Made by a program: the position numbers and the translations under genes | NCBI GenBank assembly: GCA_026003835.1 | Contig: BPHZ01000011.1 | Coordinates: 3,743-67,742 of the forward strand | Reading direction: 5' to 3' | Origin: Herpetosiphonaceae bacterium | GTDB lineage: Bacteria > Chloroflexota > Chloroflexia > Chloroflexales > Herpetosiphonaceae | DNA length: 64,000 bases | Part shown: in pieces, positions 6,278 through 61,735 of the stretch | Position numbering within the stretch: the stretch's first letter is position 1 | Layout: every line of letters starts with the position of its first letter | The notes under the pieces: model-generated | What the model was told of the DNA's origin: nothing | Databases searched by the model: none | Seen by the model: only the letters and a program-made list of their open reading frames with translations

Positions 6278-9200
6278 TTGCAGAAGGCCGGCCAAACGAC
6301 CATGACAGTTTCTCCGACGCATTCCGCCTGGCAGGCTGTCGCCACACTCGCCGCTCTGACCTATACGCCGATAGGACAGGCCGAGAGCCTGGGTGACCGG
6401 CTGACGGCGATTCTTTCCAGCGAGCTGCCATACCGCCAGGGAGCTATTCTCCTCGGGCAGGGAGCGCCACTCCATGTCGCCGGATCCTGGGGCCTGACGG
6501 ACGCCGATCTTGAGAGCCTGCGCCGTCATCCTCCAGTGCGTTCGGGCAACGGCCTCCCGGCGCCAACCCAGGAGGGCTGGCAGGGCATCGAGCTCCAGGC
6601 CCTGGGAGAAACCATTGGTGTGCTCGCCCTGCGCGGGCTCGACGATACAGCTTTGCCCGAGGATCTGCTCCTGGCGTTGGCAGGCCAGGTCGCGCTCCTC
6701 TGCTTTGCCGGCTATGTGGCGGAGCACGAACCGGAAGCCACCCAGCAGGTCGATCCGGTACAGGTAGCGGCGACGTTGGCAGGTCCGCTCTACGAACTCG
6801 CCGGGCAGACCGATTTCCGTCGCTTCCTTCGTGAGCTTGCGCTCCAGGCCGCCAAACTCCCCGATGTCGTAGGGGCAGCTGTCTATCTTGCCAGTGAAGA
6901 ACGAATGAGCCTGGCGGCCTCCGCCTCTGAAGATAATGCTACCTTTCCAGGCGAACTGCAGCAGAGCGAGACTGAGATCCTGAATAGCCCGGAGTCCGGC
7001 CCGCATCCTGCATATGTGCTCTTGTCCCTGCAGGATGGCAAACAGCGGATCGGCACGCTCCTGCTCTATCACACCGGCTCTACCGCCATCTCCCAGCGTA
7101 CCCGGCAGGCCTATGATCTGTTCGCCGTCCAGGCATCGTTAGCCCTACGCACTGCCAGGACCTTCGAAAATCAGCGCACCCAGGGACGCGATCTGTTTAT
7201 CCTCTATGAGAACAGCCGCATCCTCAATAGCACACTTGATCTTGGCATCATCCTCGACCGGCTCTGCGAGAATGTTGCCTTCGCTCTGGCAAGCGACCAC
7301 TGTATTGTTATGTTGTGGGATCAAGAGCGCGGCGAGATGGAGTATGCCAGCGCCTTCGATGCCATCAATCCACTTCAACTCGGCAGCTTCCCGGTCGGCG
7401 AACGTTTCAAGCCGGCGCCTGACTCCGTCGCCGGTCTGGTGATGCGCACTGGCCGGCCAATTGCTATCGACAATCTTTCTAGTGATCCGCGCATCGGCGA
7501 CGACCGGCAGCGGCTGCTCAGCTTCGGCTTTAAGAGCGTCCTCTGCGCCCCGATGATCCAGCAAGATAACCTGCTTGGTATTCTGCTGGTCAGCTCGAAT
7601 AATCCACGTTCCTATAGCTCTGTAGAGATGACCCTGATCCAGACTCTCGCCGGCCAGGCAGCCATTGCCCTCGGCTATGCACGGGTCATCGAAGAGGAAC
7701 GCCAGCGCTCCACTGAGATGGAGCTGCTGCACACCCTCAGCCGCGAGCTTAGCAGCGGGCTGAGCGTCCAGGAGGCGGCGGAGGCGATTGTACGTGTCCT
7801 CGAGCGCATCAAACCGGGAGCTGACTTCGAGATCTGCGTCTACGATAGCTCGGCGCAGCTGCTGCGGACGGTTGTGCGCAGCGCCAGTGCCGTCGATATC
7901 GGGTCGACCACAGGCGTCTATACACTTGATGAAGGCTTTAGCGGCTGGCTGGCCCGCCATCGTCGACCTCTGCGTATCGACGATATCAGCGGGCAGCGCA
8001 GCGTTCGCCCGGCCAATGCTGAGGCCCTGAAAAAGCGCCGTATCCGCTCCTTCCTCGGCGTTCCGCTGCTCGTCGGCGACGAACTCGTCGGGACGATCGA
8101 GCTAGCCTCGCCCAAGACCAATGCCTTTGGCCCCGATGATGAACTGCTGCTGATGATTATCGCCGGCCAAGCGGCACAGGCGATTCAGAACGCCATTAGC
8201 TTTGAGACGGCCGACGAGGTGCTGCGCAAGCGCATCCGCGAGCTAACAGCGCTCCAACTCATTAGCCGTAAGCTGACCTCTACGCTCTACCTTGACGATA
8301 TTCTTGCGGCAGTGTTGGCTGAGGCTCAAGAAGCAACCGCCGCTCCCGCGGGGATGGTCATTCTACGCGATGAGGTCGCTAAGTTTGCTGAGGATCTAGT
8401 GGGCAGCAAGTTCGCCGGCCCCGCTGAGAGTCGCTCACTGCAAATGGATGAGACCGGTACGCTGCGGCTGGTGGCGGTTGAGGGCTACAGCGATGAAGAG
8501 CAGCGGCTGCTGCTGGCAAGCCTGCGCGACCCCAACGGTCCTTTTAGCCTGGCCATCGCTGAGGGCAAAGCACAGATCGTGGATGACTTATCTGAGGAGA
8601 TAGCGTCGCTGCAGCTCTCGATGCAGTCGCTGCTGCTCGTGCCCGTCATCTACGAGGAGCGGATCGCAGGCATCATCATCCTCGGACGCAACAGTACCAG
8701 AGCCTTCAATCGCGATGCCCTTGAGTTTGTCAGAGCATTGGCCGACCAGGCCGCGCTGGCGATTGGTAATGCGCAGCACTTCGCCGAGCTGGAGCGACAG
8801 CGTGAGCTGCTCCAGCGCCGCGCTAGCTTGCTCAACGAGGTGCTGGAGATCGGCAATGCCTTGCGCGCCGACCGTGAGCTGCCCGACCTGCTCGAGCAGG
8901 TGGCGTTCAGCGTCGCCGATGCCGCCGGCTTCCGCTCGGTCGTCTTTATCCTCACCGATCGCGAGCGGCCAGACCATATGCGCGTTGTCGCCGCCGCTGG
9001 CGTGCCAATTGCAAAGCTCAACCGCATGCGCAGCATACGTATCTCCATCGCTGCGCTGCATCCGTTCCTTGATCAAAGATATCGACTGGGCCGGGCCTTC
9101 TTCATCCCCAAGGAGGAGGCCCCCCAGGATTCAGAGATCGACGAAATCCTTGACTGGCAGGCGCAGACCAGTGACACCATGCCCGGCGGATGGCAGCCGG

Positions 9201-10801
9201 GCGACCGTTTCCTGGTGCCGCTCTACAGCACTGAGCGCGAGATGATCGGCCTGATGGCGATCGACGATCCCTTCGACCGCCGGCGGCCCAACCGCCGTAC
9301 AGCCGAGATCCTGGAGATCTTCGCCAACCAGGCGGCTATCGCTATCGAGAATGCCTGGCTCTTCCGGGATCGTGAGCGGCAGATCCGTGGGCTTGAGGCG
9401 ATCCGGCGCATTGGGCAGGTGACCAGCTCAACGCTGGATATGGATAGCCTGCTGCAAGGCGTGTACGAGGTGCTCACTGACTTCCTGCCCGTCGACAGCT
9501 TTATCCTGCATGTGGTCGACACCGAGCGTAAACTGATCACTCGCAGCCTGATCATCGACCTCGGCGAGGTATTGACCGTCATGCAGGAGAAGCCGGTTCC
9601 CCCGAAGTCGCTGACTGAGTGGCTGCTGACCAATCACCAGCCACTGCTCTTCGGCGATATCAACCAGGAGATCAGCGCCTACCCAGATATCACCCCGAAC
9701 ACGATTGGCAGCGGCGATAATGCCCCTTCCTGGATGGGCGTTCCGTTGCTAGCCCGGGACGATCAGCCCATCGGCGTGATGGCGATCCAGAACTATCGGC
9801 CCCACGCCTTCAGCCAGCGCGATCTTGATTTTATGCTCAGCGTAGCGCATCAGGTTTCGCTGGGCCTGCAGAACGCGCGTCTCTTTGCTGAGACAGAGGG
9901 TCATCTGCGCCAGATTGCCGAAGAGGCGGAACGTCTGACGACGATCAACCGTGTCTCCAGCCTGGCCGCCTCGACCCTGGATTTCCGCGCGCTCTGCCAG
10001 CTTGCGGTCGATGAGATGGCACGCGCAACTGAGGCTGATCAGTCGCGGCTTTTGCAGTTCGATCGCAGCCAGAGTATCGCCATCTGCCGCGCTGAGTACC
10101 ATCACACCGGGATGGTCGATACCCTCACCCTCCCCCTCGATACGAATCCCACCATCGCCTGGCTCGATCGCGAGCAGCGCCCGCTGCGTGTCGAGAACGT
10201 CGCTACCGACCCGGTTGTGGCACCGATCAAAGAAACCTTGCTCGCGTTTGGCATTCGGAGCATGATGATCGTGCCCCTGGTTGTAAAAGGTGAGGTGATC
10301 GGATCGGTGGGGTTGGATCGCCTCAACGAGGATCGTCCCTTCAGCGAGCGGGATGCCGAGGACATGCCAGACCATCGCCCAACCAGATCAGCACGGCGAT
10401 GGAGAATTCGCGCCTGTTCCGCGAGCGTGAAGCGCCGCATCCGCGAGCTGGATGCGATCAATCGTATCAGCCAGGCAGGTGACCTCGACGCTCGACCTGC
10501 AGTCGGTGCTGGAGACGCCTGCACCACGGCCTGGGCGAGATTATCGACGTCAGTACCTCGTTCATCGGCCTCTATGACGCTAAAACCAACATTCTCACCT
10601 ATCCGCTGTGTTTCGACAACGGCAAGCCCATCCACTTTACACCTGCTGAGGTTGGCGAGCACAACATCAACGGCTGGGTCATCCGCAACCGCCAGCCGCT
10701 GCTGGCCGGCACCGCTGAGGAGGCGATCCAGTATCGCGGCGGTGTACTGCCCCTCGATACCCGCATTGGCCGGGAAGATCAGATCGAACAGTCATACCTG
10801 A
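6278..10801 (+). CDS. multi-GAF sensor histidine kinase, N-terminal fragment (authentic frame lost near 10367)
   Basis: 1507-aa ORF-track product with at least seven tandem GAF modules. Each module ends in a linker of the type (G/N)QAAxAIxNAxLF. The last ~430 nt are out-of-frame read-through; the real continuation (TIANQISTAMENSRLFRERE...) is in other frames. Confidence 0.85.
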   Translation: MQKAGQTTMTVSPTHSAWQAVATLAALTYTPIGQAESLGDRLTAILSSELPYRQGAILLGQGAPLHVAGSWGLTDADLESLRRHPPVRSGNGLPAPTQEGWQGIELQALGETIGVLALRGLDDTALPEDLLLALAGQVALLCFAGYVAEHEPEATQQVDPVQVAATLAGPLYELAGQTDFRRFLRELALQAAKLPDVVGAAVYLASEERMSLAASASEDNATFPGELQQSETEILNSPESGPHPAYVLLSLQDGKQRIGTLLLYHTGSTAISQRTRQAYDLFAVQASLALRTARTFENQRTQGRDLFILYENSRILNSTLDLGIILDRLCENVAFALASDHCIVMLWDQERGEMEYASAFDAINPLQLGSFPVGERFKPAPDSVAGLVMRTGRPIAIDNLSSDPRIGDDRQRLLSFGFKSVLCAPMIQQDNLLGILLVSSNNPRSYSSVEMTLIQTLAGQAAIALGYARVIEEERQRSTEMELLHTLSRELSSGLSVQEAAEAIVRVLERIKPGADFEICVYDSSAQLLRTVVRSASAVDIGSTTGVYTLDEGFSGWLARHRRPLRIDDISGQRSVRPANAEALKKRRIRSFLGVPLLVGDELVGTIELASPKTNAFGPDDELLLMIIAGQAAQAIQNAISFETADEVLRKRIRELTALQLISRKLTSTLYLDDILAAVLAEAQEATAAPAGMVILRDEVAKFAEDLVGSKFAGPAESRSLQMDETGTLRLVAVEGYSDEEQRLLLASLRDPNGPFSLAIAEGKAQIVDDLSEEIASLQLSMQSLLLVPVIYEERIAGIIILGRNSTRAFNRDALEFVRALADQAALAIGNAQHFAELERQRELLQRRASLLNEVLEIGNALRADRELPDLLEQVAFSVADAAGFRSVVFILTDRERPDHMRVVAAAGVPIAKLNRMRSIRISIAALHPFLDQRYRLGRAFFIPKEEAPQDSEIDEILDWQAQTSDTMPGGWQPGDRFLVPLYSTEREMIGLMAIDDPFDRRRPNRRTAEILEIFANQAAIAIENAWLFRDRERQIRGLEAIRRIGQVTSSTLDMDSLLQGVYEVLTDFLPVDSFILHVVDTERKLITRSLIIDLGEVLTVMQEKPVPPKSLTEWLLTNHQPLLFGDINQEISAYPDITPNTIGSGDNAPSWMGVPLLARDDQPIGVMAIQNYRPHAFSQRDLDFMLSVAHQVSLGLQNARLFAETEGHLRQIAEEAERLTTINRVSSLAASTLDFRALCQLAVDEMARATEADQSRLLQFDRSQSIAICRAEYHHTGMVDTLTLPLDTNPTIAWLDREQRPLRVENVATDPVVAPIKETLLAFGIRSMMIVPLVVKGEVIGSVGLDRLNEDRPFSERDAEDMPDHRPTRSARRWRIRACSASVKRRIRELDAINRISQAGDLDARPAVGAGDACTTAWARLSTSVPRSSASMTLKPTFSPIRCVSTTASPSTLHLLRLASTTSTAGSSATASRCWPAPLRRRSSIAAVYCPSIPALAGKIRSNSHT

Positions 10802-11454
10802 TTGTGCCGATCATCGCCGGCGACGAGGTGCTGGGCGTCATCAATATCCAGAGCTACGAGCGCTACGCCTACAGCCAGCAGGATCTCAACTTTGTCTCGA
10901 CAGTGGCAGGACAGGCGGCAGCCGCTATCGCCAATGCGCGCCTGTTCCGCGAGCGTGAGCGCCGCATCCGCGAGCTGGACGCGATCAATCGTATTAGCCG
11001 GGCAGTAACCTCGACGCTCGACCTGCAGTCGGTGCTGGAGCGCCTGCACCACGGCCTGGGCGAGATTATCGACGTCAGCACCTCATTCATCGGCCTCTAT
11101 GACGCTCGCACCAACATCTTGAGCTACCCAATCTGCTACGATAGTGGACAGCCAGTCCACTTCGATCCAATCCCATTACGCGGCGGCATTACGCGCTGGG
11201 GCATCATCAACCGCCAGCCGGTTCTCGTTGATAGCGCTGAGGAGGCCGCATCCTACGAGCAGGATGCGCAGATTGCCCGCGTCGGTATCGAGGGTAAAGT
11301 CGAACAGTCCTTCCTGGTCGTACCGATCATCGCTGGCGACGAGGTGCTGGGCGTCATCAATATCCAGAGCTACGAGCGCAACGCCTTCACGCATCACGAT
11401 CTAAACTTCGTCTCAACTGTGGCCGGGCAGGCCGCAGCCGCCATCGCTAATGCC
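10411..11454 (+). repeat. tandem duplication of a whole GAF module (units 10411-10938 and 10939-11454) with near-identical ends and diverged core
   Basis: RLFRERERRIRELDAINRIS..VTSTLDLQSVLERLHHGLGEIIDVSTSFIGLYDA and VPIIAGDEVLGVINIQSYER...DLNFVSTVAGQAAAAIANARLF occur twice. The DNA at these ends is nearly identical, while the ~80 central codons differ at most positions. Confidence 0.9.
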
Positions 11455-12843
11455 CGTCTCTTCAGCGAGCGCGACCGTTCAATTCAGGAGCTCAGCACGC
11501 TGAATAAGATCGGCCAGGCGCTGGGCTCGACCGTCCGCTTCGAAGATCTGCTGCAAGTCATCTACGAGCAGACCAGTCTGCTGCTGGATACAACCAATTT
11601 CTACATGGCGCTCTATGACGAACGCCGCTATCAGGTCTCGTATCCGTTCTTCTATGAGCACGGCCAGCCGATCTCGATCCCATCCCATCGTTTGGGCAAA
11701 GGCCTGACCGATTATGTTATTTCAACCCGCCAGCCACTGCTAATTACCGAGCGCTTCGAGGAGTTCTTACACGAACATAACATTCAGCTGATCGACGAGC
11801 CGGCGCGCTCGTGGTTGGGTGTGCCGATGATCGCTGCCGATAAAGTTGTCGGCGTCATTGGTATCCAGGACTATGAGCACGAGCACGCCTACGGCGAAAA
11901 CGAGGTCCGGCTGCTATCGACGATCGCAAACCAGGCAGCGCAAGCGCTGGAGAACGCCCGCCTCTTCACCGAGTCGCGCGAGAGCGTCCGCGAGCTGTCA
12001 ACGCTCTCTGAGACGAGCGTCTCGCTTGCCGGGACCCTTGAGATCGAGGAGATTCTCACCATCGGCGCGAGCAGCGCGATGGAGCTTGCCCGCTCCGATG
12101 TCGGCGGAATCTTCCTGATCGAGGAAAACGAGGGAAGCCTGGAGCTTGGCGAGGCAATCTTCCTCGACCAACTCCGGATGGAGATCCCGCCGGATGAGGT
12201 ACGCCTAAAGCTTTTGCGTACACTGGACCGGCTCGATCCGCTGCGTGAGGGACAGCCGGTGCGAGTCGCCGATGCACAGGATGATCCTTCGCTGATAGGG
12301 CTGGCACGCAAGCTTAAGGTACGCGGCCTGGCAATCCTGCCAATCCTCAAGGAGCAGCGCCTGGGTGGGGCTATGCTGATCGGCGCTATCCAGCCTCGCG
12401 AGTTCGAGGAGCGGGCTATCGCCAGCCTCAACATCCTTGGCGCGCAGGTAGGCCAGGCTATCGAGAATGCGCAGCTCTTCGCGCAGATTCGACGCTTCAA
12501 TAGCGAGCTGGAGGAGATGGTGGCGCAGCGCACGCAGGCGCTGGCAGAAGCCAACGCTATGCTCACGATCGAGAAGGAACGCATCGAGGCGCTGCATACC
12601 ATCGCCACTGAGCTCAGCGCCACGCTCGAACTCAACGAGGTGCTGTTGCGTACGCTCGACCTGGCTTCGAAAGCGCTCAATGTCAACCATGGCTCAATCG
12701 TGCTCCATGACGCTGAGAACGACAAATTCATCTGTCGGGCGGTGCTGGGGAGGAACGGTAGAGCCGAAGCGGCGGACTACGAAGTACCCCCTGGAGAAAG
12801 GGCGAGGGCTGGCGAGCTGGATCATCAACCACCCCGAGGCTGA
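10804..12843 (+). CDS. multi-GAF sensor histidine kinase, middle fragment
   Basis: 679-aa ORF-track product with four further GAF modules and linkers ANARLFRERE, ANARLFSERD, ENARLFTESR, ENAQLFAQIR. The frame becomes non-authentic after ~12750 (run gggg at 12747-12750). Confidence 0.85.
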   Translation: MPIIAGDEVLGVINIQSYERYAYSQQDLNFVSTVAGQAAAAIANARLFRERERRIRELDAINRISRAVTSTLDLQSVLERLHHGLGEIIDVSTSFIGLYDARTNILSYPICYDSGQPVHFDPIPLRGGITRWGIINRQPVLVDSAEEAASYEQDAQIARVGIEGKVEQSFLVVPIIAGDEVLGVINIQSYERNAFTHHDLNFVSTVAGQAAAAIANARLFSERDRSIQELSTLNKIGQALGSTVRFEDLLQVIYEQTSLLLDTTNFYMALYDERRYQVSYPFFYEHGQPISIPSHRLGKGLTDYVISTRQPLLITERFEEFLHEHNIQLIDEPARSWLGVPMIAADKVVGVIGIQDYEHEHAYGENEVRLLSTIANQAAQALENARLFTESRESVRELSTLSETSVSLAGTLEIEEILTIGASSAMELARSDVGGIFLIEENEGSLELGEAIFLDQLRMEIPPDEVRLKLLRTLDRLDPLREGQPVRVADAQDDPSLIGLARKLKVRGLAILPILKEQRLGGAMLIGAIQPREFEERAIASLNILGAQVGQAIENAQLFAQIRRFNSELEEMVAQRTQALAEANAMLTIEKERIEALHTIATELSATLELNEVLLRTLDLASKALNVNHGSIVLHDAENDKFICRAVLGRNGRAEAADYEVPPGERARAGELDHQPPRG

Positions 12844-14242
12844 AGGGGCGATCATCCATGACACGCTGGAAGACGAGCGCTGGGTGCCGCTGCCGGGCCG
12901 CAGTGAAGGAGCACGCGCGGTCATCGCCGTTCCGCTGATGTCGTCGGATACCGTTGTCGGCGTGCTGATGTTTACCAGCAGCCAGCCAGGATCCTTCACC
13001 TCCGACCATCTGCGCTTCCTGCGCACGATTGGCACTGAGGTCTCCGCAGCGTTGCATAACGCCGAGCTGTACAAGCTGGTGCTTGACAGCGCCGACCGCC
13101 TTTCGGCTGCGCTTATGCAGCAGAAGGAGGAGGCCGGCAAGCGCGAGGCTATCCTCCGCTCTGTCTCGGAAGGCGTCATGGTGCTCGATCAATCCGGCAC
13201 GATCATTCTCTACAATCCGGCGGCAGAGCGTGTGCTCCAGGTGCCCGCAGACCAGGTCATCGGGCAGACGCTGCAAATCTTCGCCCGCTATCAAGGCGAT
13301 AGCGAGAGCGAGGGCGGCGCGGATCGCGCGCTGCTGATCTATACTGGTCTTCAGGAGGGATTGCGCGCCGTTGACAGCAACGATCAGGTCTACTCGTCGA
13401 CAATTAGCCTTGGGGGGCAGACGATCAACGCCAGTTTTGCGCCAGTTACCAGCGCCGACGGCAGCAGGCTCGGCGTCGTCGTGGTGCTGCGCGATATCAC
13501 CCGTGAGATCGAGGCCGATCGCGCGAAGCGCGACTTTATCTCCATGGTCTCGCACGAACTGCGCACGCCGCTGACACCAATCCGCGGCTATGTCGATCTG
13601 ATGCTGCTTGGCGCAGTGGGCGAGATCACCGATACCCAGCGCGACTGTCTCAATGCTATCAAGAAGAATATGCTACGTATGCTTTCGCTGGTCGAAGACT
13701 TGCTGGAGATCGGCCGTATTGAAGCGGGCAAGATCAAGCTCGACATCACGCTCCTAGATATCGCAAGCTCGATCAATGAGATCGTTGGCATGCTGAAGCC
13801 AATGATCGATTCCAAAGAGATGAATCTGACGATCGAGATCCCGCCTGACTTGCCGCAAATTGAGGCTGACAGCAAGCGTATCGGGCAGGTGCTTACTAAT
13901 ATGATCTCAAACGCGATCAAATACACCTTTGCGCGCGGGAATATCTGGGTGCGCGCCTTCACACGAGATGACGATTTTGTCCAGATCGAAGTGCAAGATA
14001 CTGGTGTCGGCATCAAGCCGGAGGATATGAAGAAGCTCTTTACACGCTTCTTCCGCACAGATAACCCTCTGCGCGATGAGGCGGGCGGCACGGGCCTGGG
14101 CCTCTCAATCGCCAAATCATTCGTCGAGATGCATGGGGGCGAGATGTGGGTTGAGAGTGAGCTTAATGTCGGCAGCACCTTTAAAGTCGCGCTGCCTATT
14201 CGCCAGCCGCGTCCTGAGCTCGACGCTCCGCAGGATCCCTAG
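12467..14242 (+). CDS. multi-GAF sensor histidine kinase, C-terminal fragment (last GAF, PAS, HisKA, HATPase_c)
   Basis: This frame is authentic from ~12750: YPLEKGRGLASWIINH...VGVLMF (GAF), SEGVMVLDQSGTIILYNPAAERVL (PAS), H-box MVSHELRTPLTPI, and ATP-lid DTGVGI...GGTGLGLSIAKSFVEMHGG. The frame equals that of 6278. Confidence 0.9.
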   Translation: MRSSSRRFDASIASWRRWWRSARRRWQKPTLCSRSRRNASRRCIPSPLSSAPRSNSTRCCCVRSTWLRKRSMSTMAQSCSMTLRTTNSSVGRCWGGTVEPKRRTTKYPLEKGRGLASWIINHPEAEGAIIHDTLEDERWVPLPGRSEGARAVIAVPLMSSDTVVGVLMFTSSQPGSFTSDHLRFLRTIGTEVSAALHNAELYKLVLDSADRLSAALMQQKEEAGKREAILRSVSEGVMVLDQSGTIILYNPAAERVLQVPADQVIGQTLQIFARYQGDSESEGGADRALLIYTGLQEGLRAVDSNDQVYSSTISLGGQTINASFAPVTSADGSRLGVVVVLRDITREIEADRAKRDFISMVSHELRTPLTPIRGYVDLMLLGAVGEITDTQRDCLNAIKKNMLRMLSLVEDLLEIGRIEAGKIKLDITLLDIASSINEIVGMLKPMIDSKEMNLTIEIPPDLPQIEADSKRIGQVLTNMISNAIKYTFARGNIWVRAFTRDDDFVQIEVQDTGVGIKPEDMKKLFTRFFRTDNPLRDEAGGTGLGLSIAKSFVEMHGGEMWVESELNVGSTFKVALPIRQPRPELDAPQDP

Positions 14243-19430: not shown

Positions 19431-19661
19431 ATGGCTGGACGCAAAACAATGACGCTGCTCCTGATCGCGGCGGCCCTGTTGCTTGCAGGCTGCGATACAG
19501 CGGGCGCCCCCGCTACGCCGACGAGCGGACAAGCCGCTTCAACCCCAACGAGCGAAAGCTATCCCTATCCAGTGGTGCCGGGCAATGATGGGCCCGTAAC
19601 ATATCCAGAGCCGAACAGCCAGCCTCCCGTCTTGACACCCTATCCTGAGCCGACACCGTAG
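19431..19661 (+). CDS. small proline-rich lipoprotein (76 aa)
   Basis: Strong RBS and signal peptide with lipobox LLAGC. The mature part is P/T/S-rich with no recognisable domain. Confidence 0.6.
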   Translation: MAGRKTMTLLLIAAALLLAGCDTAGAPATPTSGQAASTPTSESYPYPVVPGNDGPVTYPEPNSQPPVLTPYPEPTP

Positions 19662-19691
19662 CTCGACGATCCCGTACAGCTCCCGGCTACG

Positions 19692-19761: not shown

Positions 19762-19829
19762 AGCAATTTCGATCCGGTTGGCGGCGGCCCAATCGTCGCC
19801 GCTATTTGTTTGATGGTGTGTGATCACGA

Positions 19830-29333: not shown

Positions 29334-29509
29334 GCAAGCGGACAAGCGGCGAGGGGCCGCGCTGTCCCTTCTGCGGCTCCCAGGATGTCGAGCTGCACGC
29401 CCTCTTTGGCTCGTTGATGTTAATGTCACAGTATTATTGCAACGGCTGTCGCACGGTCTTCGAACACATTCGTGACGACGAGCCTCCGGCATTCCCCCAG
29501 GAAAGGTAG
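29330..29509 (+). CDS. paaD: 59-aa zinc-ribbon protein = detached C-terminal half of PaaD (below the 60-aa ORF-track cutoff)
   Basis: ATG 29330 overlaps the paaC stop (ATGA). The translation is MSKRTSGEGPRCPFCGSQDVELHALFGSLMLMSQYYCNGCRTVFEHIRDDEPPAFPQER. The pattern CPxCGSxD...FGS...YxCxxCxxxFE is the conserved PaaD C-terminal Cys motif. Confidence 0.7.
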   Translation: MSKRTSGEGPRCPFCGSQDVELHALFGSLMLMSQYYCNGCRTVFEHIRDDEPPAFPQER

Positions 29510-29588
29510 GCAGAGCCAGTTGCACGACATCGAGAACCACAGACGGCTCGGCACAATCGATCGACCAGGGAGGGCTCTACGCCTCGGC

Positions 29589-30008
29589 ATGGGAGGAATG
29601 ACCTTTTTCCTGGCCCTTGCCCTGGCGTTCAGGCTGCGCTCGCTGTTTCTAAACCTGAGCAGCCCCATCAGTATCAATAATGAGTCGCTGATCTGGGCAG
29701 GACGCTTGTTGTTCGTTGGGGCAGTGATCACACCGCTGCTGCATATGGCGCTGCACCGCCTCTCCGCGCTGCGCCTACCGCCGGTCGACAGGCGCAGCTA
29801 CGGCCGGATGTTGCTGGCGCCGCTTGCGCTCGACCTGCTGGCGCTGCCCCTGCTGGCCGTAGAGGCCGTCTCGCCGGACGCGACGATCCTTATCGCCGTC
29901 AATACCGCGCTGCTTACCGGCGATCTGCTGATCTATTTCTGGCTGCGCCGCTTCCCTGCGGCGGCTCGCGTCGTGGAGACAAAAGAGCAAATCATGGTAT
30001 ATAGCTAG
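29589..30008 (+). CDS. hypothetical integral membrane protein
   Basis: Start taken at MGGMTFFLALALAF (ATG 29589) within ORF-track 29472..30008. About 4 hydrophobic helices and no recognised domain. The stop TAG is part of the CTAG that bounds repeat copy C1. Confidence 0.5.
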   Translation: MGGMTFFLALALAFRLRSLFLNLSSPISINNESLIWAGRLLFVGAVITPLLHMALHRLSALRLPPVDRRSYGRMLLAPLALDLLALPLLAVEAVSPDATILIAVNTALLTGDLLIYFWLRRFPAAARVVETKEQIMVYS

Positions 30009-30099
30009 TGGCCAACCACATTGATGAAGAAGAGGGAGCCGGAGGGTCGTAGTCCATCCGAACCTCCCCATGACCATGGATGGGGTAGGCTGCCAGTAG
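30005..30099 (+). mobile_element. CTAG-bounded dispersed repeat (MITE-like), copy C1
   Basis: CTAG at 30005-30008 and GTAG at 30096-30099 flank an 87-nt interior that starts TGGCCAACCAC and ends GTAGGCTGCCA. The core GGGAGCCGGAGGGTCGTAGTCCATCCGAACCTCCCCATGACCATGGATGGGGT contains two hairpins. Confidence 0.65.
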
Positions 30100-30119: not shown

Positions 30120-31034
30120 ATGACTGTGTCCAAGCTGATGTCGATGCAAGAGGCGATTGGTCGTTTTGTCCACGATGGAATGGCGGTAGCGATGAGCCTC
30201 GCGCTTGAACCGCTCATCCCCTTCGCCGCCGGCCATGAGATCATTCGCCAGCGGCGGCGCGATCTCACCCTGATCGGGCCAATCTCCGATTGTCTGTTCG
30301 ATCAGCTCATCGGCGCGGGCTGCGTGCGGCGCGTCATCGCAGCATGGGTCGGCAATGTTAGCGGCGGGCTTGGACATGCCTACCGCCGTGCCGCCGAACA
30401 GGGATTGCCCCAACCGCTTGAGATCCACGATCATTCCAACTTTACCATTGCGCTTGCGCTGCGCGCCGGGGCGCTGGGCGTCCCCTATATCCCGGCATAC
30501 ACACTCTTGGGAAGCGACCTGCCACGCTCAAACCCTGGACTGGTGCAGGCCGAGTACGAAGGCCGGCCGATCCTGCACGTCAAAGCGGTCACTCCCGATG
30601 TCGCCATCGTGCAGGTACAGCGCAGCGATGAAGATGGCAACGCCCACGCCTGGGGCAATCTCGGCATCAGCCTTGAAGCCGGTCTCGCCTCACGCGATAT
30701 CATTATCGTCGCCGAGGAGATTGTGCCGCGAGACGTGATCCTCAGCGATCCCAATCGCGTCATCGCGCCCTCGTTCAAAGTTCGAGCTGTCGTCCATGAG
30801 CCGGGCGGAGCGCATCCCTCGCCGGTCCAGGGCTACTACAACCGCGATCATGAGTTTTTCCACGCGTACCACAGCGCAACGCGGACGCTCGAAGGGATGC
30901 AGTCCTGGCTGCAGGAGTGGGTCTACGGTATCCCGGATCGCGCCGCCTATCTGCGCAAGCTGGGCGCCGAGCGCTGGACGAGCCTCCAGCGACGCACAAG
31001 CCTGCTGGCGGCGCCGGTGGACTATGGGTACTAG
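30120..31034 (+). CDS. CoA-transferase family I, subunit A-like (glutaconate-CoA-transferase GctA-like)
   Basis: SKLMSMQEAIGRFVHDGMAVAMS..., PYIPAYTLLGSDL and DVAIVQVQRSDEDGNA are typical of the alpha subunit. GTG 30126 (8 nt after GGAGG) is an equally plausible start. No beta subunit lies adjacent. Confidence 0.75.
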   Translation: MTVSKLMSMQEAIGRFVHDGMAVAMSLALEPLIPFAAGHEIIRQRRRDLTLIGPISDCLFDQLIGAGCVRRVIAAWVGNVSGGLGHAYRRAAEQGLPQPLEIHDHSNFTIALALRAGALGVPYIPAYTLLGSDLPRSNPGLVQAEYEGRPILHVKAVTPDVAIVQVQRSDEDGNAHAWGNLGISLEAGLASRDIIIVAEEIVPRDVILSDPNRVIAPSFKVRAVVHEPGGAHPSPVQGYYNRDHEFFHAYHSATRTLEGMQSWLQEWVYGIPDRAAYLRKLGAERWTSLQRRTSLLAAPVDYGY

Positions 31035-36576: not shown

Positions 36577-37677
36577 ATGCCCGGCACGCGTCGCTACCTG
36601 CTCATTCTGCTGCTCGGACTACTGTCGCTGCTGCTTGCCGCCTGTCGTCTATCCGGTACACCCGCTATCGATCAAGCGCCCGCTGCCACACCGGCGAGCA
36701 GCCCCAGCCCGCGGCCTACGCGGCCGCCGCAGGCTGGGACCAGCAGGAGCAACCCTGTGCCGCGCAGCCAGACGGTTGAGGTGGGGGACTGGGAGATCAG
36801 GGTATTGGATGTCAAACGGGGCGCTGCAGCCTTGGAAACCGCCAAGACCGATCATCCCTTCGTCGATCCGCCGCCGCAGGGTATGGAGTACCTGCGCGTT
36901 AAGCTGTGGGTCAAGAGCGCGCATACGGATCAGGGCGAGTATAGCCCCGGCCAGCTCGATGTAGCGGTGACCGGCGAGCGTTTCGTCGAATACCGCACCG
37001 TCGATCTCGGCCAGCGTTTTGGGTTAGCCCTCTGGCCGCACGATCTGCAGTTTGCGCCGCCGCTCACTAGCGGGCAGTCGACCGAGGGCTGGGCGACCTT
37101 TCTTGTGCCGCAGGAAGAGCGTAAGCTGATCCTGATCCTTGGCGAGTTTTTTGGATTTGATCAGGAGAAGCGTCGCTTTATTGCCCTTGAAGAGGGAGCT
37201 GCCGTTGCCGTACCCCCTGAACTACGCGATCGCTCGCCGAATGCGCTGGGCAAGCGCCATACTGAGCCGGCGCCGTTTGGCGAGAAAGTTAGCACACATA
37301 ACTGGGAGCTAGCGGTGCTGGACGTCCTGCGCGGCGAGGAGGCCTGGCAGATGCTCCAGGCCGAGCCGTTTGCCGAACCGCCCGAGCCGGGGCGCGAGTA
37401 TCTGCTCGTCAAGCTCCGCATGCGCTACATCAAGCCCGTCGACGAATCCGAAATGATCTTTGTCAATATCTTTCGGACGCGCGGCAGCGCAGGACAGGTT
37501 TATGAACAGCCGTCGATGGCGGCGCCACCGCCCAGGCTTGACTGCAGGCTCTATCCCGGCGGCGAGTGTGAGGGCTGGGTGGTGCTTCAGGCCGGCGCGG
37601 GGGAAAGTGGTATGATGTTGATCTTCGATCCGCCGCTGGAATCGGGCGGAAATCGTTATCTGTCGCTTGAGCGCTAG
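36577..37677 (+). CDS. lipoprotein with two DUF4352-like beta-sandwich repeats
   Basis: Lipobox LLAAC and a P/S/T linker. There are two similar modules (VEVGDWEIRVLDVKRG...EYLRVKLWVK... and VSTHNWELAVLDVLRG...EYLLVKLRMR...). Confidence 0.6.
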   Translation: MPGTRRYLLILLLGLLSLLLAACRLSGTPAIDQAPAATPASSPSPRPTRPPQAGTSRSNPVPRSQTVEVGDWEIRVLDVKRGAAALETAKTDHPFVDPPPQGMEYLRVKLWVKSAHTDQGEYSPGQLDVAVTGERFVEYRTVDLGQRFGLALWPHDLQFAPPLTSGQSTEGWATFLVPQEERKLILILGEFFGFDQEKRRFIALEEGAAVAVPPELRDRSPNALGKRHTEPAPFGEKVSTHNWELAVLDVLRGEEAWQMLQAEPFAEPPEPGREYLLVKLRMRYIKPVDESEMIFVNIFRTRGSAGQVYEQPSMAAPPPRLDCRLYPGGECEGWVVLQAGAGESGMMLIFDPPLESGGNRYLSLER

Positions 37678-37802
37678 TCGTCCACCACATCCATCGTGCT
37701 GAGGAGGCGCTCCCCCTTTCTCATTAATATCAATGATCAATGTGGTTGACCATTGGTTGCATAAGAGATGGCGTGAGCCTATCCTGAAGAGTTGCAGGTG
37801 TT

Positions 37803-39833: not shown

Positions 39834-40928
39834 CTAGTGGTAGATAATGACCGGTGTACCAATGGGCGCCCAGCCATAGAGTAACGCAGCGGCGTGGAGC
39901 GGCAGGTTCACGCAGCCATGGCTGACGCGTCTGCCCGTCCCGAACTGGTTGTGCCAGTAGGTGCCATGGATCGCATAGCCGCCAGCACGGAAGTACATCG
40001 CATGCGGCACATCCGGCACATACCAGCTCTCGCCTCCTGCCGAGCCGCTCATCGTTTTGGATCGATATTTCGCGAAGATCTTGAAGTTGCCGGCGGGCGT
40101 CTCAAAGCCATCCTTACCCGTCGAGACAGGGGCATCGTAGACCATCTCGCTCCCCTCGAAGGCATACAGCCACTGGCGGGAAAGATCGATCTCGATACGT
40201 TTTGCGCCCCCGCCAGGGCGCCCAAGCAACAGCAGCGCATCAGTACCGATGTTGCCCCGCTCGACCTGCCATCCAGGCGGGTTCAATGGGTCGTAGGTCA
40301 AAACGGTTCGCTCAAATGCCTGGAGCATAATGCTGCGGCGCTCCCCATGTTTGACCGTCTCCGCGTTAAGCACGCCGGTCATCGGCAACCCAATATCGTG
40401 GAGCCACCCTCCAGGGAAGAGATCGCTGCGATTCATATATTCCCAAAAGTAGGATGGCACAACATAGCCAGGCGCGCTGCCAAGCTGGGGATGGTAGGGC
40501 ACAAATGTGCCGCCCTCTACCGCTATTGTCCCACCGCTGAACTCGGGCGGCGGATCCTGTTTGAGTGTTGAAAGGTAGCTGAGATCCCCATAGGTAAAGG
40601 TTGTATTATTGACTACACCCCATGGCGCCTGTTGCATCAACTCCGCCGTCAAACGACCGTACATCAGCGCCCAACGCGGATCAGCAACCTCTGCGCTGTG
40701 ATCCTCGATCCGTCCTTTCTCGAAGTATTGAACTGCCCTATCGCCTGCGATGACGACGCCGGTTTGCGCATAGCCCAAAACTCGCATGCCCTGGTGCTGT
40801 TGGTAATAACGGCGGAATTGCGGTCCAACATAGTTATCTCCCAGCGCCGACGCGCTGCCGCTGGGCAACAACGCCACAAGCAGAGCGGCGATAACGAAAA
40901 AAGGCAAGAACGATCGCCAGTACACCAT
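39834..40928 (-). CDS. L,D-transpeptidase (YkuD) domain protein
   Basis: N-terminal signal/anchor. The C-terminal YkuD domain carries the catalytic HGTYWHNQFGTGRRVSHGCVNL. Confidence 0.85.
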   Translation of the reverse strand: MVYWRSFLPFFVIAALLVALLPSGSASALGDNYVGPQFRRYYQQHQGMRVLGYAQTGVVIAGDRAVQYFEKGRIEDHSAEVADPRWALMYGRLTAELMQQAPWGVVNNTTFTYGDLSYLSTLKQDPPPEFSGGTIAVEGGTFVPYHPQLGSAPGYVVPSYFWEYMNRSDLFPGGWLHDIGLPMTGVLNAETVKHGERRSIMLQAFERTVLTYDPLNPPGWQVERGNIGTDALLLLGRPGGGAKRIEIDLSRQWLYAFEGSEMVYDAPVSTGKDGFETPAGNFKIFAKYRSKTMSGSAGGESWYVPDVPHAMYFRAGGYAIHGTYWHNQFGTGRRVSHGCVNLPLHAAALLYGWAPIGTPVIIYH

Positions 40929-45300: not shown

Positions 45301-45376
45301 CTCGCGTGCTCAGATCGCAACCTGGGCGCTGGAGAGAGGGCTGACCACCCGGCGTGATCGGCAGCGGAGCCGCTAG
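42374..45376 (+). CDS. LuxR-family transcriptional regulator with N-terminal AAA/STAND ATPase and central TPR-like repeats (LAL/MalT-like)
   Basis: 1000 aa with Walker [13 protein letters not shown], Walker [13 protein letters not shown], long TPR-like helical repeats, and a C-terminal Lux[48 protein letters not shown]. Confidence 0.9.
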
Positions 45377-45480
45377 CGTTGTCGTTCCAGTCCAGGCGAA
45401 CTCCCCATCAGTATCTCTTCCGGTAACCCGGCATACCTTACCGCTCCATAAAATTTCATTATCCCCCCACCCAAATCTAG
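45373..45480 (+). repeat. degenerate relative of the CTAG-bounded repeat (copy C5)
   Basis: CTAG at 45373-45376 (contains the LuxR stop TAG) and at 45477-45480. The interior begins GTCGTTCCAGTCCAGGCGAACTCCCCATCA, which resembles the C1 segment GTCGTAGTCCATCCGAACCTCCCCATGA. The 3' half is unrelated. Confidence 0.3.
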
Positions 45481-56188: not shown

Positions 56189-56222
56189 GGGAGGGGGCGC
56201 TCACAGGACTCCGAACGCCCCA
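56189..56222 (+). repeat. fragment resembling the core of the CTAG-bounded repeat (copy C6, no CTAG ends)
   Basis: GGGAGGGGGCGCTCACAGGACTCCGAACGCCCCA compared with C1 GGGAGCCGGAGGGTCGTAGTCCATCCGAACCTCCCCA. Confidence 0.3.
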
Positions 56223-57690: not shown

Positions 57691-58692
57691 CTACTGGCGG
57701 TTGGGGTCTTGCGAGCCTGGCTGCCCGTACTGGCCGCCGCCCTGGTCGTACGAGCTTGGCTGCCCGTACTGGCCGCCGTAGGGACTGCCCTGCCCATATT
57801 GGCCGCCGCCCTGGTCGTACGAGCCTGGCTGCCCATACTGGCCGCCGTAGGGGCTGCTCTGGCCGTAGGGACCGCCCTGCCCATACTGGCCGCCGCCCTG
57901 ATCATAGCCTGATGGCTGTCCATAAGGGGTGGAAGGAGCACCAGGGGCTGCAACGGCGGGCACCGCCTTGCGGCGGCTCATCATCAATCCGACCACGACG
58001 GCAACAATGCCGAGAGCGATGAGGCCAACCAGCCCATAGATCAACACATTCGAAGCGCTGCTGAGCGAGCCGCGCGCCTCGACATTATAGGTCTTATTCG
58101 AACCAATCGGGAAGGTGCAGGTAACCTTGTTGCCCTCTCGTTTGGCGATGTCCTGCTCGGTGAAGCTCTCGAGATTAGGCATCTCAACGCTCCAGGAAAT
58201 CAGGAAGTTGGACAGCATAGCGGGAGGGATCTCTTCGCTGCCATCGCCGGTACTTGTGTTGACCGTCGCGCCGACGACAAGAGTATCGCCATCACGACTA
58301 ATGTTGAAGCTTTGGAACATACCGCCGGTCGGACTATCGGCACTGCCCTCAGCCTCCGGACCAACCAGACGATTGAGCTGGTCCTGCAGCATGGCAAGAT
58401 CTTTAAACTCCGTCGTCATACGGACACCCTGGTACTTCTCGTCCTCCCAAGGCTCAGCCTTGGCGTTCCACTCGGGAGGCAGATCTTGGATGTCCTCTTG
58501 CGCGGATGCTACGGGGTCTTCGCCAGTCGAGCCGCCGAGCTGCTCGAGAACTTCCTTATCGATACCGATGATAATCTCGTTCGTACCACTGGCATCACTC
58601 CTGATCGTTGTTTTGGTTTGCTGCGTGATACAGCCGGCGAGGAAAAGTAGGATGAGAGTAAAACCCGAGAGGCGAACAAACCACCGGCGCAT
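57691..58692 (-). CDS. lipoprotein with C-terminal TM anchor and G/Q/Y-rich tandem-repeat tail (LppM/DUF3153-like architecture)
   Basis: Lipobox FLAGC, a ~210-aa extracytoplasmic domain, TM helix LIYGLVGLIALGIVAVVVGLMM, then a 77-aa tail of YGQP(G/S)SYDQGGGQYGQG(S)PYGGQ repeats. Confidence 0.75.
   Translation of the reverse strand: MRRWFVRLSGFTLILLFLAGCITQQTKTTIRSDASGTNEIIIGIDKEVLEQLGGSTGEDPVASAQEDIQDLPPEWNAKAEPWEDEKYQGVRMTTEFKDLAMLQDQLNRLVGPEAEGSADSPTGGMFQSFNISRDGDTLVVGATVNTSTGDGSEEIPPAMLSNFLISWSVEMPNLESFTEQDIAKREGNKVTCTFPIGSNKTYNVEARGSLSSASNVLIYGLVGLIALGIVAVVVGLMMSRRKAVPAVAAPGAPSTPYGQPSGYDQGGGQYGQGGPYGQSSPYGGQYGQPGSYDQGGGQYGQGSPYGGQYGQPSSYDQGGGQYGQPGSQDPNRQ
57694..57924 (-). repeat. in-frame tandem DNA repeats encoding the G/Q/Y-rich tail
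   Basis: The string ctggccgccgccctggtcgtacgagc(c/t)tggctgccc(g/a)tactggccgccgtaggg recurs with a ~66-75-nt period. Confidence 0.85.
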
Positions 58693-59757: not shown

Positions 59758-60363
59758 CTATTCTTGCTGCTGTGGTTTCTGCGCCTGGCGAGGAGGCTTC
59801 GCTGGATTGAAGCGGTTCATCGCCGCTGTAATGCCCTGGCTGATGAAAAGCTCTACTGCATCAGCAACCAGATCGTAGAGCCGCGGCAGATCCTGCTCCT
59901 CCTGAGCACGCCAGCGCCCAAGCACATGGTTGATTGTATCCCATCCTTCCGGCGGGCGGCCGATGCCGACACGCAAACGCGGGAAGCGCTCACTTCCCAG
60001 GTGCTGGATGATCGATTTCATCCCGTTATGGCCGCCCGACGAACCGGAGGCGCGGATACGGATCGTACCCAGCGGCAGATCGAGCTCGTCATAAATGACT
60101 AGCAACTGGGTCGAGGGGTCGATCTTGTACCAGCGCACAAGCGGGGCCACCGCTTCGCCGCTGGCGTTCATATAGGTAAAAGGCTTCGCCAGTACCACCC
60201 GCTGTCCGGCGATTATCCCGGTCGCCAGACGAGCCCTGCTGCGCTTCTCGTCGAAGCGCAGGCCGTGGCGGCTTGCCAGATGGTTGACGCATTGGAAGCC
60301 GACATTGTGGCGGGTACGGGCGTACTCCTCTCCGGGGTTGCCAAGGCCAACTATTAAGAACAT
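59758..60363 (-). CDS. pth: peptidyl-tRNA hydrolase
   Basis: MFLIVGLGNPGEEYARTRHNVGF, IRIRASGSSGGHNGMKS and RLRVGIGRP, with a short basic C-terminal extension. Confidence 0.92.
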   Translation of the reverse strand: MFLIVGLGNPGEEYARTRHNVGFQCVNHLASRHGLRFDEKRSRARLATGIIAGQRVVLAKPFTYMNASGEAVAPLVRWYKIDPSTQLLVIYDELDLPLGTIRIRASGSSGGHNGMKSIIQHLGSERFPRLRVGIGRPPEGWDTINHVLGRWRAQEEQDLPRLYDLVADAVELFISQGITAAMNRFNPAKPPRQAQKPQQQE

Positions 60364-60402
60364 AGTCTACCGTTTATTATCGAATGTCCTGGTGATCGAC
60401 CA

Positions 60403-60488
60403 CTCGTTGATATTGATAAGGATGGGGGAGCCGGAGGAGCGTAGCCCTTCCGAACCGCCCCATCACGATCGATGGGGTGGACCACTAG
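60403..60488 (+). mobile_element. CTAG-bounded dispersed repeat (MITE-like), copy C2
   Basis: CTCG at 60403-60406 and CTAG at 60485-60488 (contains the GH18 stop codon on the minus strand) flank a 78-nt interior. The interior is colinear with C1: GGGGAGCCGGAGGAGCGTAGCCCTTCCGAACCGCCCCATCACGATCGATGGGGTGGACCA. Confidence 0.65.
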
Positions 60489-61735
60489 TGTTCAGGCAAA
60501 TATGTGTTGATCTGCCGCTGGATCGTCACTGGATCGTGGACAAGTTTACGTCGGATCACTTCCCAATTCTTGGGATCTTCGTTACCGAGACGCCAGATCG
60601 CAATGCCGGCGAGATCCAGCCGCTGCACCAGGTCGAGCTTCGCCTCAAGGCTACGATGATTACTAAACCAAACGGTACGCCCGTTGTAGACGAACCAGGA
60701 TTCCTGGACACTGCCCCGCTCATCTCGCTCGCGCAAATTGACGCTCACGCCATAACGCTGAATAAGGTTCTCGATCGCGGTCCAGGTCATCGCTACAGCA
60801 TTATCCTTGCCGGAGCCCCAGTTATAGCCATAGAACGGGATGCCGACGATAATCTTGGCAGGATCGACAACCGAGCGGGCATAGGTCATAACTTCCTCAA
60901 CCCAATAGAGCGGAGCGATTGGACCAGGGCCACCGCCACGCCAATGGTAGTCATAGGTCATGATCCGCAGCCGGTCGACGACTTCGCCAATAACCTTCCA
61001 ATCCTGGAATCCGCCCAGGCCGCCCCAGTCACTGGACTTAGCATGAACCGCAATTGAGAGCAATTTGCCGTGGCTATGCAGCTCCTCGGCGAGCTTGACG
61101 ATAAAATCGCTGAACTCATCGCGCATATCCGGCGAGAGACTCTCATAATCAATATCAATGCCGTCGTAGCCGTACTTGAGGACCTCATCCACGATAATTC
61201 GGATATGCCGGGCGCGGATCTCCGGATCCTCAAGAACCACAGCAGAGGCCTCAAGGGTGCCAACATTATGCACCGTCGGCAAGACCAGAACGTTGCTCTC
61301 ATGAGCGATGCGTACCAACTCCTGATCCCTGGCGCCCGCCTCTGGCGCCAGGGTTCCATTAAAGTTCACCCCATACCAAAACGGGCTCAGCTCATCGAGG
61401 ATGTCTTTGTTGGCCTCAAACGAAGCGCGGGCATCCTCAGCGTCAAAAGAAGTAGGCAGCCAGGCCGCGACATAGCGGCCGGTTTTGGGATGGATCGTCC
61501 CCACAGTTGAGGATAGGTTGACACGCAGCGCGCTGCTCTGGACAACAGGCTCAGGAAGGGCGGGAGTCAGCGTAGGAACCGGTATAGGCGTAGCCGTCGG
61601 CGCCCGCTGTTCTTCGGCCCGGGCGGCGGCAACCATACGGCGATGCGCCAGCTCCATTTGGACCATATCAACAAGCAGCGCCGCCCAGATCAGCAGGGCG
61701 GCAACGAGGCTAAGACGAAACAACAAGCGCCGCAT
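60485..61735 (-). CDS. glycoside hydrolase family 18 protein (chitinase/peptidoglycan-hydrolase-like), membrane-anchored
   Basis: N-terminal TM helix. Catalytic motif YGYDGIDIDYE (DxxDxDxE) and a TIM-barrel-length body. Confidence 0.85.
   Translation of the reverse strand: MRRLLFRLSLVAALLIWAALLVDMVQMELAHRRMVAAARAEEQRAPTATPIPVPTLTPALPEPVVQSSALRVNLSSTVGTIHPKTGRYVAAWLPTSFDAEDARASFEANKDILDELSPFWYGVNFNGTLAPEAGARDQELVRIAHESNVLVLPTVHNVGTLEASAVVLEDPEIRARHIRIIVDEVLKYGYDGIDIDYESLSPDMRDEFSDFIVKLAEELHSHGKLLSIAVHAKSSDWGGLGGFQDWKVIGEVVDRLRIMTYDYHWRGGGPGPIAPLYWVEEVMTYARSVVDPAKIIVGIPFYGYNWGSGKDNAVAMTWTAIENLIQRYGVSVNLRERDERGSVQESWFVYNGRTVWFSNHRSLEAKLDLVQRLDLAGIAIWRLGNEDPKNWEVIRRKLVHDPVTIQRQINTYLPEH

Follow-up and report, generated by a model that had tools for sequence, protein, structure and literature searches.

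The 64-kb stretch of DNA analysed here (the window) contains five related copies of a repeat, each 83-100 nt long and non-coding, which together form a genuine dispersed repeat family (Table 1). The family is most aptly regarded as a new set of MITEs, a kind of element already known, from a little-sampled lineage of Chloroflexota. Its copies are bounded by terminal inverted repeats and by CTAG or TA-containing flanks, lie at gene ends, fold into a hairpin, have relatives in other contexts and are absent from the corresponding junction of the nearest relative. A DDE transposase with TA or CTAG as its target probably mobilised them in trans. The more unusual point is their central hairpin, a strongly covarying GNA-triloop structure that is common to several unrelated inverted-repeat families.

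Table 1. Copies of the repeat family in the window, parts of copy C1, and elements with window-type termini in metagenome contigs (positions are those of the window).
Feature	Position	Strand	Length	Description	Neighbouring genes
C1, focal copy	30005..30099	+	95 nt		Left CTAG (30005-30008) holds the TAG stop of gene 29472-30008; CoA-transferase gene (P0001, 302 aa) with GTG start at 30126, 26 nt downstream
C1 left terminal inverted repeat	30005..30025	+		CTAGTGGCCAACCACATTGAT; own mini-palindrome GTGG/CCAC	
C1 central hairpin	30041..30059	+		GGAGGGT-C-GTA-G-TCCATCC; the widespread GNA-triloop module in decayed form, with 2 mismatches	
C1 right terminal inverted repeat	30079..30099	+		GATGGGGTAGGCTGCCAGTAG; its inner part, ATGGGG, can form a stem with CCCCAT at 30066-30071	
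C2	60389..60488	+	100 nt	Left end CTGGTGATCGACCAC	Right CTAG holds the stop (CTA on the + strand) of GH18 gene 60485-61735(-); pth start at 60363 (- strand), 25 nt from the left end
C3	19830..19929	+	100 nt	Central hairpin perfect, GGAGGGGCGCAGCCCCTCC	recN start at 19947, 17 nt downstream; upstream, a small lipoprotein ORF and a terminator-like hairpin
C4	41145..41230	-	86 nt		Between divergent ykuD-type (39834-40928, -) and glyoxalase (41231/41270-41647, +) genes
C5, newly found	37674..37756	-	83 nt	Central hairpin deleted	CTAG at 37674-37677 holds the TAG stop of gene 36577-37677; biotin-carboxylase gene start at 37803
L226 element			~91 nt	CTAGTGGTCAACCAC...GAGCCACTAG; perfect 13-bp central stem	
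L213/L229 and L224 elements				Window-type ends and one extra long palindrome	
L149/L187 elements				Window-type termini	
L143:1250				Partial window-type copy	

The sequence-only reading of the window had recognised four copies, C1 to C4, all of which are related repeats; the count rises to five with C5, which was first flagged by a repeat finder through an inverted match between 29998-30025 and 37736-37763 and is also recovered by nhmmer. C5 aligns to C2 end to end, with a single gap of ~22 nt where the central hairpin has been lost. C1 and C2 had been described as colinear, and indeed share 78% identity over 78 nt with no gap. The similarity within the family also holds under alignment statistics: in leave-one-out nhmmer searches every omitted copy is recovered (C1, 7e-11; C2, 2e-14; C3, 4e-9; C4, 4e-6; C5, 3.5e-4), and over the 64-kb window no match beyond the five copies is better than E ~0.5-1. 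Open reading frames that run across the copies are only spurious extensions of flanking genes. Two segments previously proposed as degenerate relatives find no support as such, since neither 45373-45480, which also lacks the terminal inverted repeats, nor 56189-56222 gives an nhmmer match, even at E ≤ 10-100 with filters off (--max).

Two other features of the copies had to be revised. C1 to C4 had all been placed in the plus orientation, which is incorrect for C4. In pairwise global alignments with C1, C2 and C3, C4 scores 73.5, 71.5 and 60.5 in the opposite orientation versus 38, 51.5 and 42 in the same orientation, so that, with C5 also reversed, the family is split into three plus and two minus copies. 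The right end of C2 at 60488 stands, but its left end had been put at a CTCG at 60403. The terminal 15-mer CTAGTGGnCnACCAC, allowing up to two mismatches, is found in the window at element ends only, and because of this restriction the left end of C2 is now set at 60389.

The termini are inverted repeats of ~21 nt with the consensus CTAGTGGTCnACCACAyTGAT; the imperfect inverted repeats noted earlier at the interior ends are thus real, but their length is extended to ~21 nt. The left end of C5 reads CCAATGGTCAACCACATTGAT in family orientation, and the right end of C2 reads CTAGTGGTCCACCCCATCGAT as its reverse complement. When end-to-end complementarity is compared with that of random window segments, the scores of C1, C2, C3 and C5 are reached by 0-40 of 2000 segments, while that of C4 is weaker and is reached by 231 of 2000. 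Each end contains a palindrome, GTGG-N4-CCAC, with a stem of only ~4 bp. Folded as RNA, each copy forms one long imperfect hairpin that extends from the paired termini to the central triloop, with z-scores against shuffles of -2.2 for C1, -3.6 for C2, -5.0 for C3, -2.2 for C4 (plus strand folded) and -2.2 for C5. With DNA folding parameters, local hairpins dominate, namely GTGG/CCAC, GGAGG/CCTCC and CCCCAT/ATGGGG. The last of these had been described as a second hairpin; it is made up of the inner right inverted repeat and the 3' tail of the core. The central stem-loop takes the form GGAGGGn-C-GNA-G-n'CCCTCC in the copies, with stem mismatches in C1 and C2. The structure of C5, in which both inverted repeats are kept and the interior is lost, is what one would predict if function resides in the ends.

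The window has a G+C content of 60.5% and encodes proteins similar to Chloroflexota proteins. CTAG occurs in it 53 times for 188 expected, and this 3.5-fold depletion means that the CTAG brackets reported around the copies are not a chance feature; every copy is flanked by CTAG or a one-off variant, and element ends make up 7 of the 53 CTAGs. A gene stop codon lies inside 15 of the 53, and three of these 15 are element ends, belonging to C1, C5 and C2 (Table 1). TAG is also the commonest stop among long ORFs (27/47). Flanks that are not intact CTAG are the right GTAG of C1 and, with the TA mutated, CTGG in C2 and CCAA in C5; beyond the flanking CTAG, the copies show no direct repeats. All five copies occupy short intergenic gaps and lie 0-46 nt ahead of a start codon. 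C1 and C3 point the same way as the gene that follows and C2 and C5 the opposite way, C4 being located between divergent genes. The genes that follow the copies are unrelated in function (CoA-transferase, pth, recN, glyoxalase, biotin carboxylase). No transposase domain is present among the 20 window proteins scanned, and no tRNA genes were found in the window.

Relatives of the family occur in other genomes. A metagenome scan that used the central hairpin pattern as query matched mainly other families with the same hairpin, and revealed window-type termini in about 6 or more contigs from soil. These elements share their termini and differ in their internal modules. They lie between ordinary genes, such as those for an M16 peptidase, a phosphoglucomutase, a LacI-family regulator and a hydrolase, and the terminal TAG of the L149 element is the stop codon of the upstream LacI-family gene. 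Flanks other than CTAG keep the TA, as in TTAG (L149) and CTAT (L213). Plasmid BLAST searches with C1 and with one element of the S family described below gave no match, the viral-contig scan gave one match only, by chance, inside a coding region, and a literature search by repeat sequence strings returned nothing relevant.

The nearest homologue of the CoA-transferase encoded beside C1 (P0002, contig L240) is only 79% identical to it, which indicates that the lineage of the window is poorly sampled. Only 4 nt separate the C1-flanking genes on L240, where the window has 117 nt, and L240 lacks the element at this junction. The orthologous junction is thus free of the element, but an exact empty site with a single CTAG cannot be drawn on L240 since the flanks are too diverged, the upstream proteins being 30% identical.

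Altogether, these observations support the earlier proposal of a non-autonomous, MITE-like element. The copies are short and non-coding, carry ~21-nt inverted repeats and TA/CTAG flanks, occur in both orientations, and include a derivative reduced by deletion to its ends; varied relatives with the same termini are found in other contexts, and the element is missing from the L240 junction. It is on these features that mobilisation by a DDE transposase is judged probable. In the proposed mechanism, the gene for a DDE transposase would lie elsewhere in the genome, and its product would bind both inverted repeats, excise the element and paste it into a TA dinucleotide within a CTAG context. Insertion would duplicate either TA, in the style of IS630/Tc1-mariner, which is preferred, or the whole CTAG, in the style of IS5, which is less likely. 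Insertions would land at gene ends, the surviving CTAGs often being a C followed by a TAG stop. The gene-end position and the overlap with stop codons would thus result from CTAG targeting in a CTAG-poor genome with many C+TAG stops. Because the first base of the element is a G, the TAG stop would be regenerated and the insertion tolerated. After insertion, the element would become part of the next gene's 5' leader or inter-cistronic spacer; speculatively, its long hairpin could there alter transcript processing or termination. The transposase family, the length of the duplication, present-day mobility and the effect on the host are points that we infer rather than observe.

IS5-family ends start with GG or GA, and IS5 has a target preference for YTAR/CTAG with a 4-bp duplication. 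The sequence-only reading had interpreted the flanks as a CTAG target duplication of the kind left by IS5-group transposases. This is not established: since CTAG is a palindrome, a duplication of all 4 bp looks the same as a TA duplication inside CTAG, and for the same reason CTAG could be part of the element instead of a duplication. The element termini are, to our knowledge, unlike IS630, Tc1 or IS5 ends. IS630 inserts at TA within CTAG (Tenzen & Ohtsubo 1991, as cited in PMC2170065), and ~24-30 bp of each end are enough for transposition in the IS630 family (PMC2170065). An IS630-type transposase acting on TA within CTAG appears to fit at least as well as an IS5-type one. The TA kept in TTAG and CTAT leans towards the IS630 type, only weakly since the TA is mutated in C2 and C5.

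An autonomous insertion sequence with the same termini, which would be the natural partner of the elements, was found neither in the window nor in 1.5 Mb of loci, viral contigs or plasmids. Likewise, none of the fetched loci contains a pair of inverted repeats of the window family or of the S family at IS-length spacing. Pfam annotation of 150 ORFs flanking hairpins returned only housekeeping functions among the 25 most frequent families, and the genes beside window-type copies are also housekeeping genes, with no transposase partner among them. An origin of the GGAGG/CCTCC hairpin from the RBS-sequestering leader of a transposase gene was considered and set aside by reasoning, as the spacing to any start codon does not suit it.

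The central hairpin extends well beyond the window family. Most of the 120 metagenome matches belong to other families with the same stem-loop, (T)T-GGAGGGn-C-GNA-G-n'CCCTCC-AA(A)CC. An alignment of 103 distinct instances together with C1-C3 (106 in all) was used to measure covariation. At the n:n' pair, A-U occurs 47 times, C-G 18, U-A 17 and G-C 15, with only 9/106 non-Watson-Crick combinations (2 wobble, 7 unpaired); at the y:r pair, U-A occurs 84 times and C-G 14 times. The covariation score is 0.139; shuffles give 0.064, with none of 500 reaching the observed score, and slid controls do not exceed 0.052. Since n and n' were left free by the search pattern and y lies outside it, the covariation test is not circular at these positions. 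Across the 106 loci this hairpin, whose pairing had been noted as largely kept between copies, covaries strongly and is kept paired by compensatory change. The mispairs show no excess of G-U, and thus no sign of RNA-specific selection. The central stem-loop is structure-constrained, widespread and common to several unrelated inverted-repeat families. The module is present in at least three such families of Chloroflexota-type soil genomes: the window family, a family termed S, and a third one found on L143 together with a window-type element. The S family is abundant, has the ends TGACAsGAsTTACGCGGT with the same hairpin inside, and varies in size from ~80 nt (ends and hairpin, L184) to ~170 nt by stacked perfect palindromes with GC-NNN-GC loops. 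One S-type end was also observed in a Roseiflexaceae MAG (L087).

A scan of genome contigs with the 18-nt core CCNTCCRAACCNCCCCAT was too loose, and the matches listed are mostly due to chance. Among these listed matches are multicopy families with TTGGAGGGG-loop-CCCCTCCAAACCnCCCCAT, a hairpin and tail similar to those of the module, one being a ~230-nt structured repeat in Thermodesulfobacteriota/Syntrophaceae MAGs, which has no Rfam match, and a second being present in Methylomirabilota/Rokubacteria. Because these matches were ascertained by the pattern itself, the relatedness of the Thermodesulfobacteriota and Methylomirabilota repeats is treated as unexplained.

The recurrence of the hairpin raises the possibility, which we regard as unlikely, that the stem-loop (G)GTTy-GGAGGGn-C-GNA-G-n'CCCTCC-rAACC-N-CCC is a functional module in its own right and more than filler within one MITE. 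It would then act as an ssDNA or RNA structure seen by a HUH enzyme or a host factor and be swapped or stacked among mosaic elements, and the window repeats would be REPIN-like composites, not plain DDE MITEs. A related proposal, distinctly doubtful, is that each end represents a REP-type unit made of a tag and a small palindrome, the inverted pair forming a hairpin that is moved as ssDNA, and without target duplication, by a single-copy HUH tyrosine transposase (RAYT/TIRYT); in that case CTAG would belong to the element itself as a tag. Each end does consist of a CTAG tag followed by the mini-palindrome GTGG-N4-CCAC, and the entire element forms one hairpin. The central C-GNA-G triloop is of the d(GCGAAGC) type, an exceptionally stable DNA mini-hairpin, and stem covariation without G-U enrichment suggests pairing at the DNA level. 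If C1 is removed with both tetramers, the upstream ORF would end at a TGA, with 2 nt between it and the GTG of the next gene, much as the two genes are coupled on L240. Precedents also exist in the form of TIRtrons, inverted-repeat-bounded families tied to RAYT-like genes, including in soil Acidobacteria, and of GTAG REPs in Chloroflexi (PMC3733652).

Several observations speak against such REPIN-like elements. The described REP super-families carry a GTAG or CGTC tag (PMC3733652) on a palindrome of 20-40 nt, whereas here the tag is CTAG and the end palindromes, with their ~4-bp stems, are far shorter than REP hairpins. The window contains neither solo ends nor clusters, and no Y1 transposase is encoded by the genes adjoining any copy. 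In addition, TA is kept where the outer bases of CTAG differ, and the repeated coincidence with TAG stops is more simply explained by targeting of pre-existing (C)TAG sites. The DDE-mobilised MITE thus remains the preferred reading.

A structured RNA had been offered as an alternative by the sequence-only reading. The repeats would then be strand-specific structured RNAs, either cis-regulatory leaders or small RNAs, retained for an RNA function and not for mobility. The position of all five copies just upstream of a start codon, folds more stable than those of shuffles (z -2.2 to -5.0) and the covarying central stem would suit such a function. However, Rfam covariance models gave no match at the gathering score in the window and only noise at E ≤ 10 around C1 and C3, which sets aside known Rfam families. 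The mixed orientation relative to downstream genes of unrelated function, the missing main hairpin of C5, the decay of the copies (with stem mismatches in C1 and C2) and the mispairs without G-U enrichment also speak against it. A dedicated cis-regulatory RNA is thus unlikely, and retention for a strand-specific RNA function in general seems very improbable. That the repeats are non-mobile palindromic sites for a host DNA-binding protein (an operator or nucleoid-associated protein) is hardly credible: their palindromic architecture near promoters and gene starts would agree with it, but at 83-100 nt and with three nested palindromes they are far larger than an operator, covariation rather than conservation marks their stem positions, the genes beside them have no relation to one another, and related copies occur in unrelated contexts of other genomes.

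Recognition of the family bears first on annotation, as it corrects gene starts and intergenic features: some stop codons come from, or overlap with, the elements, and the leaders of recN, pth and catabolic genes contain them. It also provides a marker for strain typing in a poorly sampled Chloroflexota lineage. More generally, the family shows how gene ends become the landing sites of a CTAG/TA-targeting transposon when the genome avoids CTAG and has TAG as its main stop. If the GNA-triloop hairpin is a true exchangeable functional module, it would bear on the assembly and spread of mosaic repeats (BIME/REPIN-like) in soil bacteria.

Correia/NEMIS elements of Neisseria are short, TA-flanked and bounded by inverted repeats, lie beside genes with which they are co-transcribed, form long hairpins and include interior-deleted variants. 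The window family has the same architecture; the sequences are unrelated and come from another phylum. With respect to the IS5 group, the CTAG on either side would suit a 4-bp duplication of CTAG, but the elements continue with TGGTC after CTAG, unlike the IS5 ends known to us, TTAG and CTAT keep only the TA, and no IS5 partner was found in the sequences searched. REPINs, REPs and TIRtrons share with the window family hairpin doublets of inverted units, a terminal tetranucleotide tag, an extragenic location and a high copy number (PMC3733652); the window family differs by its CTAG tag, its tiny end palindromes and its lack of solo units and of an associated Y1 transposase. Correia/NEMIS, as well as RUP and Nezha, are listed among bacterial MITEs (PMC3733652). 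The likeness to the IS630/Tc1-mariner-derived MITEs RUP of Streptococcus pneumoniae and Nezha of cyanobacteria, and to mini-ISY100, lies in a length of ~100 nt, the absence of coding capacity, inverted repeats of ~20-26 nt and TA flanks. In contrast with IS630-derived MITEs, no cognate transposase or matching IS ends were found in the loci searched for the window family, and its interior, a GC-rich hairpin module with a GNA triloop, also occurs in other inverted-repeat families.

A second family of MITE-like elements, designated "S", is abundant in soil and rhizosphere metagenome contigs (L120-L239). The "S" elements end in TGACAsGAsTTACGCGGT and, like the window family, contain the central GNA-triloop hairpin. 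Their copies range in length from ~80 to ~170 nt because extra perfect palindromes are stacked within them; the stem sequence of these palindromes varies from copy to copy, and the pairing stays perfect. Two metagenome contigs carrying elements with window-type termini and one extra long palindrome, L224 (1070-1650) and L213 (reverse strand, ~930-960), have the right flank TATAGCCGAGA... in common. In L224, a segment of ~560 nt stands in place of the right inverted repeat of the element and looks like a rearrangement of, or an insertion into, the repeat. The 157-aa ORF located on this segment was without a Pfam match.

Two other repeats were found among the matches listed for MAG contigs. The first is an intergenic element of ~230 nt, multicopy and conserved in Syntrophaceae and Thermodesulfobacteriota MAGs, which contains TTGGAGGGGAGACTCATCTCCCCTCCAAACCACCCCAT and combines several hairpins with a long-range pairing between ATGAAAGTC and GACTTTCAT. 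Comparison of this element with Rfam matched no family. A Syntrophaceae MAG contig, L119, carries two matches to the Acido-Lenti-1 RNA above the gathering score, located on opposite strands (6998-7043 and 7160-7205). The second is a family of the form GTTGGAGGGGGC-loop-GCCCCCTCCAAACCTCCCCATTCGCGCGAGGTG in Methylomirabilota/Rokubacteria MAGs, whose repeats are at times arranged in tandem in L027 and L064, with a period of ~39-60 nt.

Locations of repeats outside the window and of features within it
Feature	Location	Sequence or source
~230-nt element	at least 9 loci: L010, L013, L014, L020, L042, L050, L077, L114, L119	Syntrophaceae/Thermodesulfobacteriota MAGs
GTTGGAGGGGGC-loop-GCCCCCTCCAAACCTCCCCATTCGCGCGAGGTG family	L027, L061, L064, L089, L090, L092, L096, L115	Methylomirabilota/Rokubacteria MAGs
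"S" family, examples	L168:1173-1340; L184:978-1050; L124:4330-4440	metagenome contigs
"S" family	L087	Roseiflexaceae MAG
Small lipoprotein-like ORF	19433-19662	
Terminator-like hairpin	~19780-19812	GGCGGCGGCC...GTCGCCGC and T-rich run
uvrA-like gene	22-2768 (ORFs 22-1791, 1764-2768)	
Very large ORFs	6278-10801, 10804-12843	
Internal repeats of the very large ORFs	8200-12960	
69-nt tandem repeats	57721-57945, in ORF 57691-58692 (-)	

Within the window, the small lipoprotein-like ORF, followed by the terminator-like hairpin, lies directly 5′ of C3, the copy of the window family upstream of recN. The uvrA-like gene extends past the window start and is split between two ORFs that overlap and are read in different frames; a frameshift or an assembly error could account for this split. 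Inside the very large ORFs, sequence units recur every ~516-528 nt (repeat families D1, D3, D5 and D9-D12); these units are 76-94% identical to each other and probably form an array of repeated sensor domains. The 69-nt tandem repeats (family D2; first pair 91% identical) are coding, which implies that the protein has a low-complexity repeat segment.

The G+C content of the window is 60.5%, and CTAG is 3.5-fold rarer than expected across it; 15 of its 53 CTAGs contain the stop codon of a gene. TAG is the most frequent stop in the 47 long ORFs of the window (27 TAG, 12 TGA and 7 TAA), and such a predominance of TAG is uncommon among bacteria.
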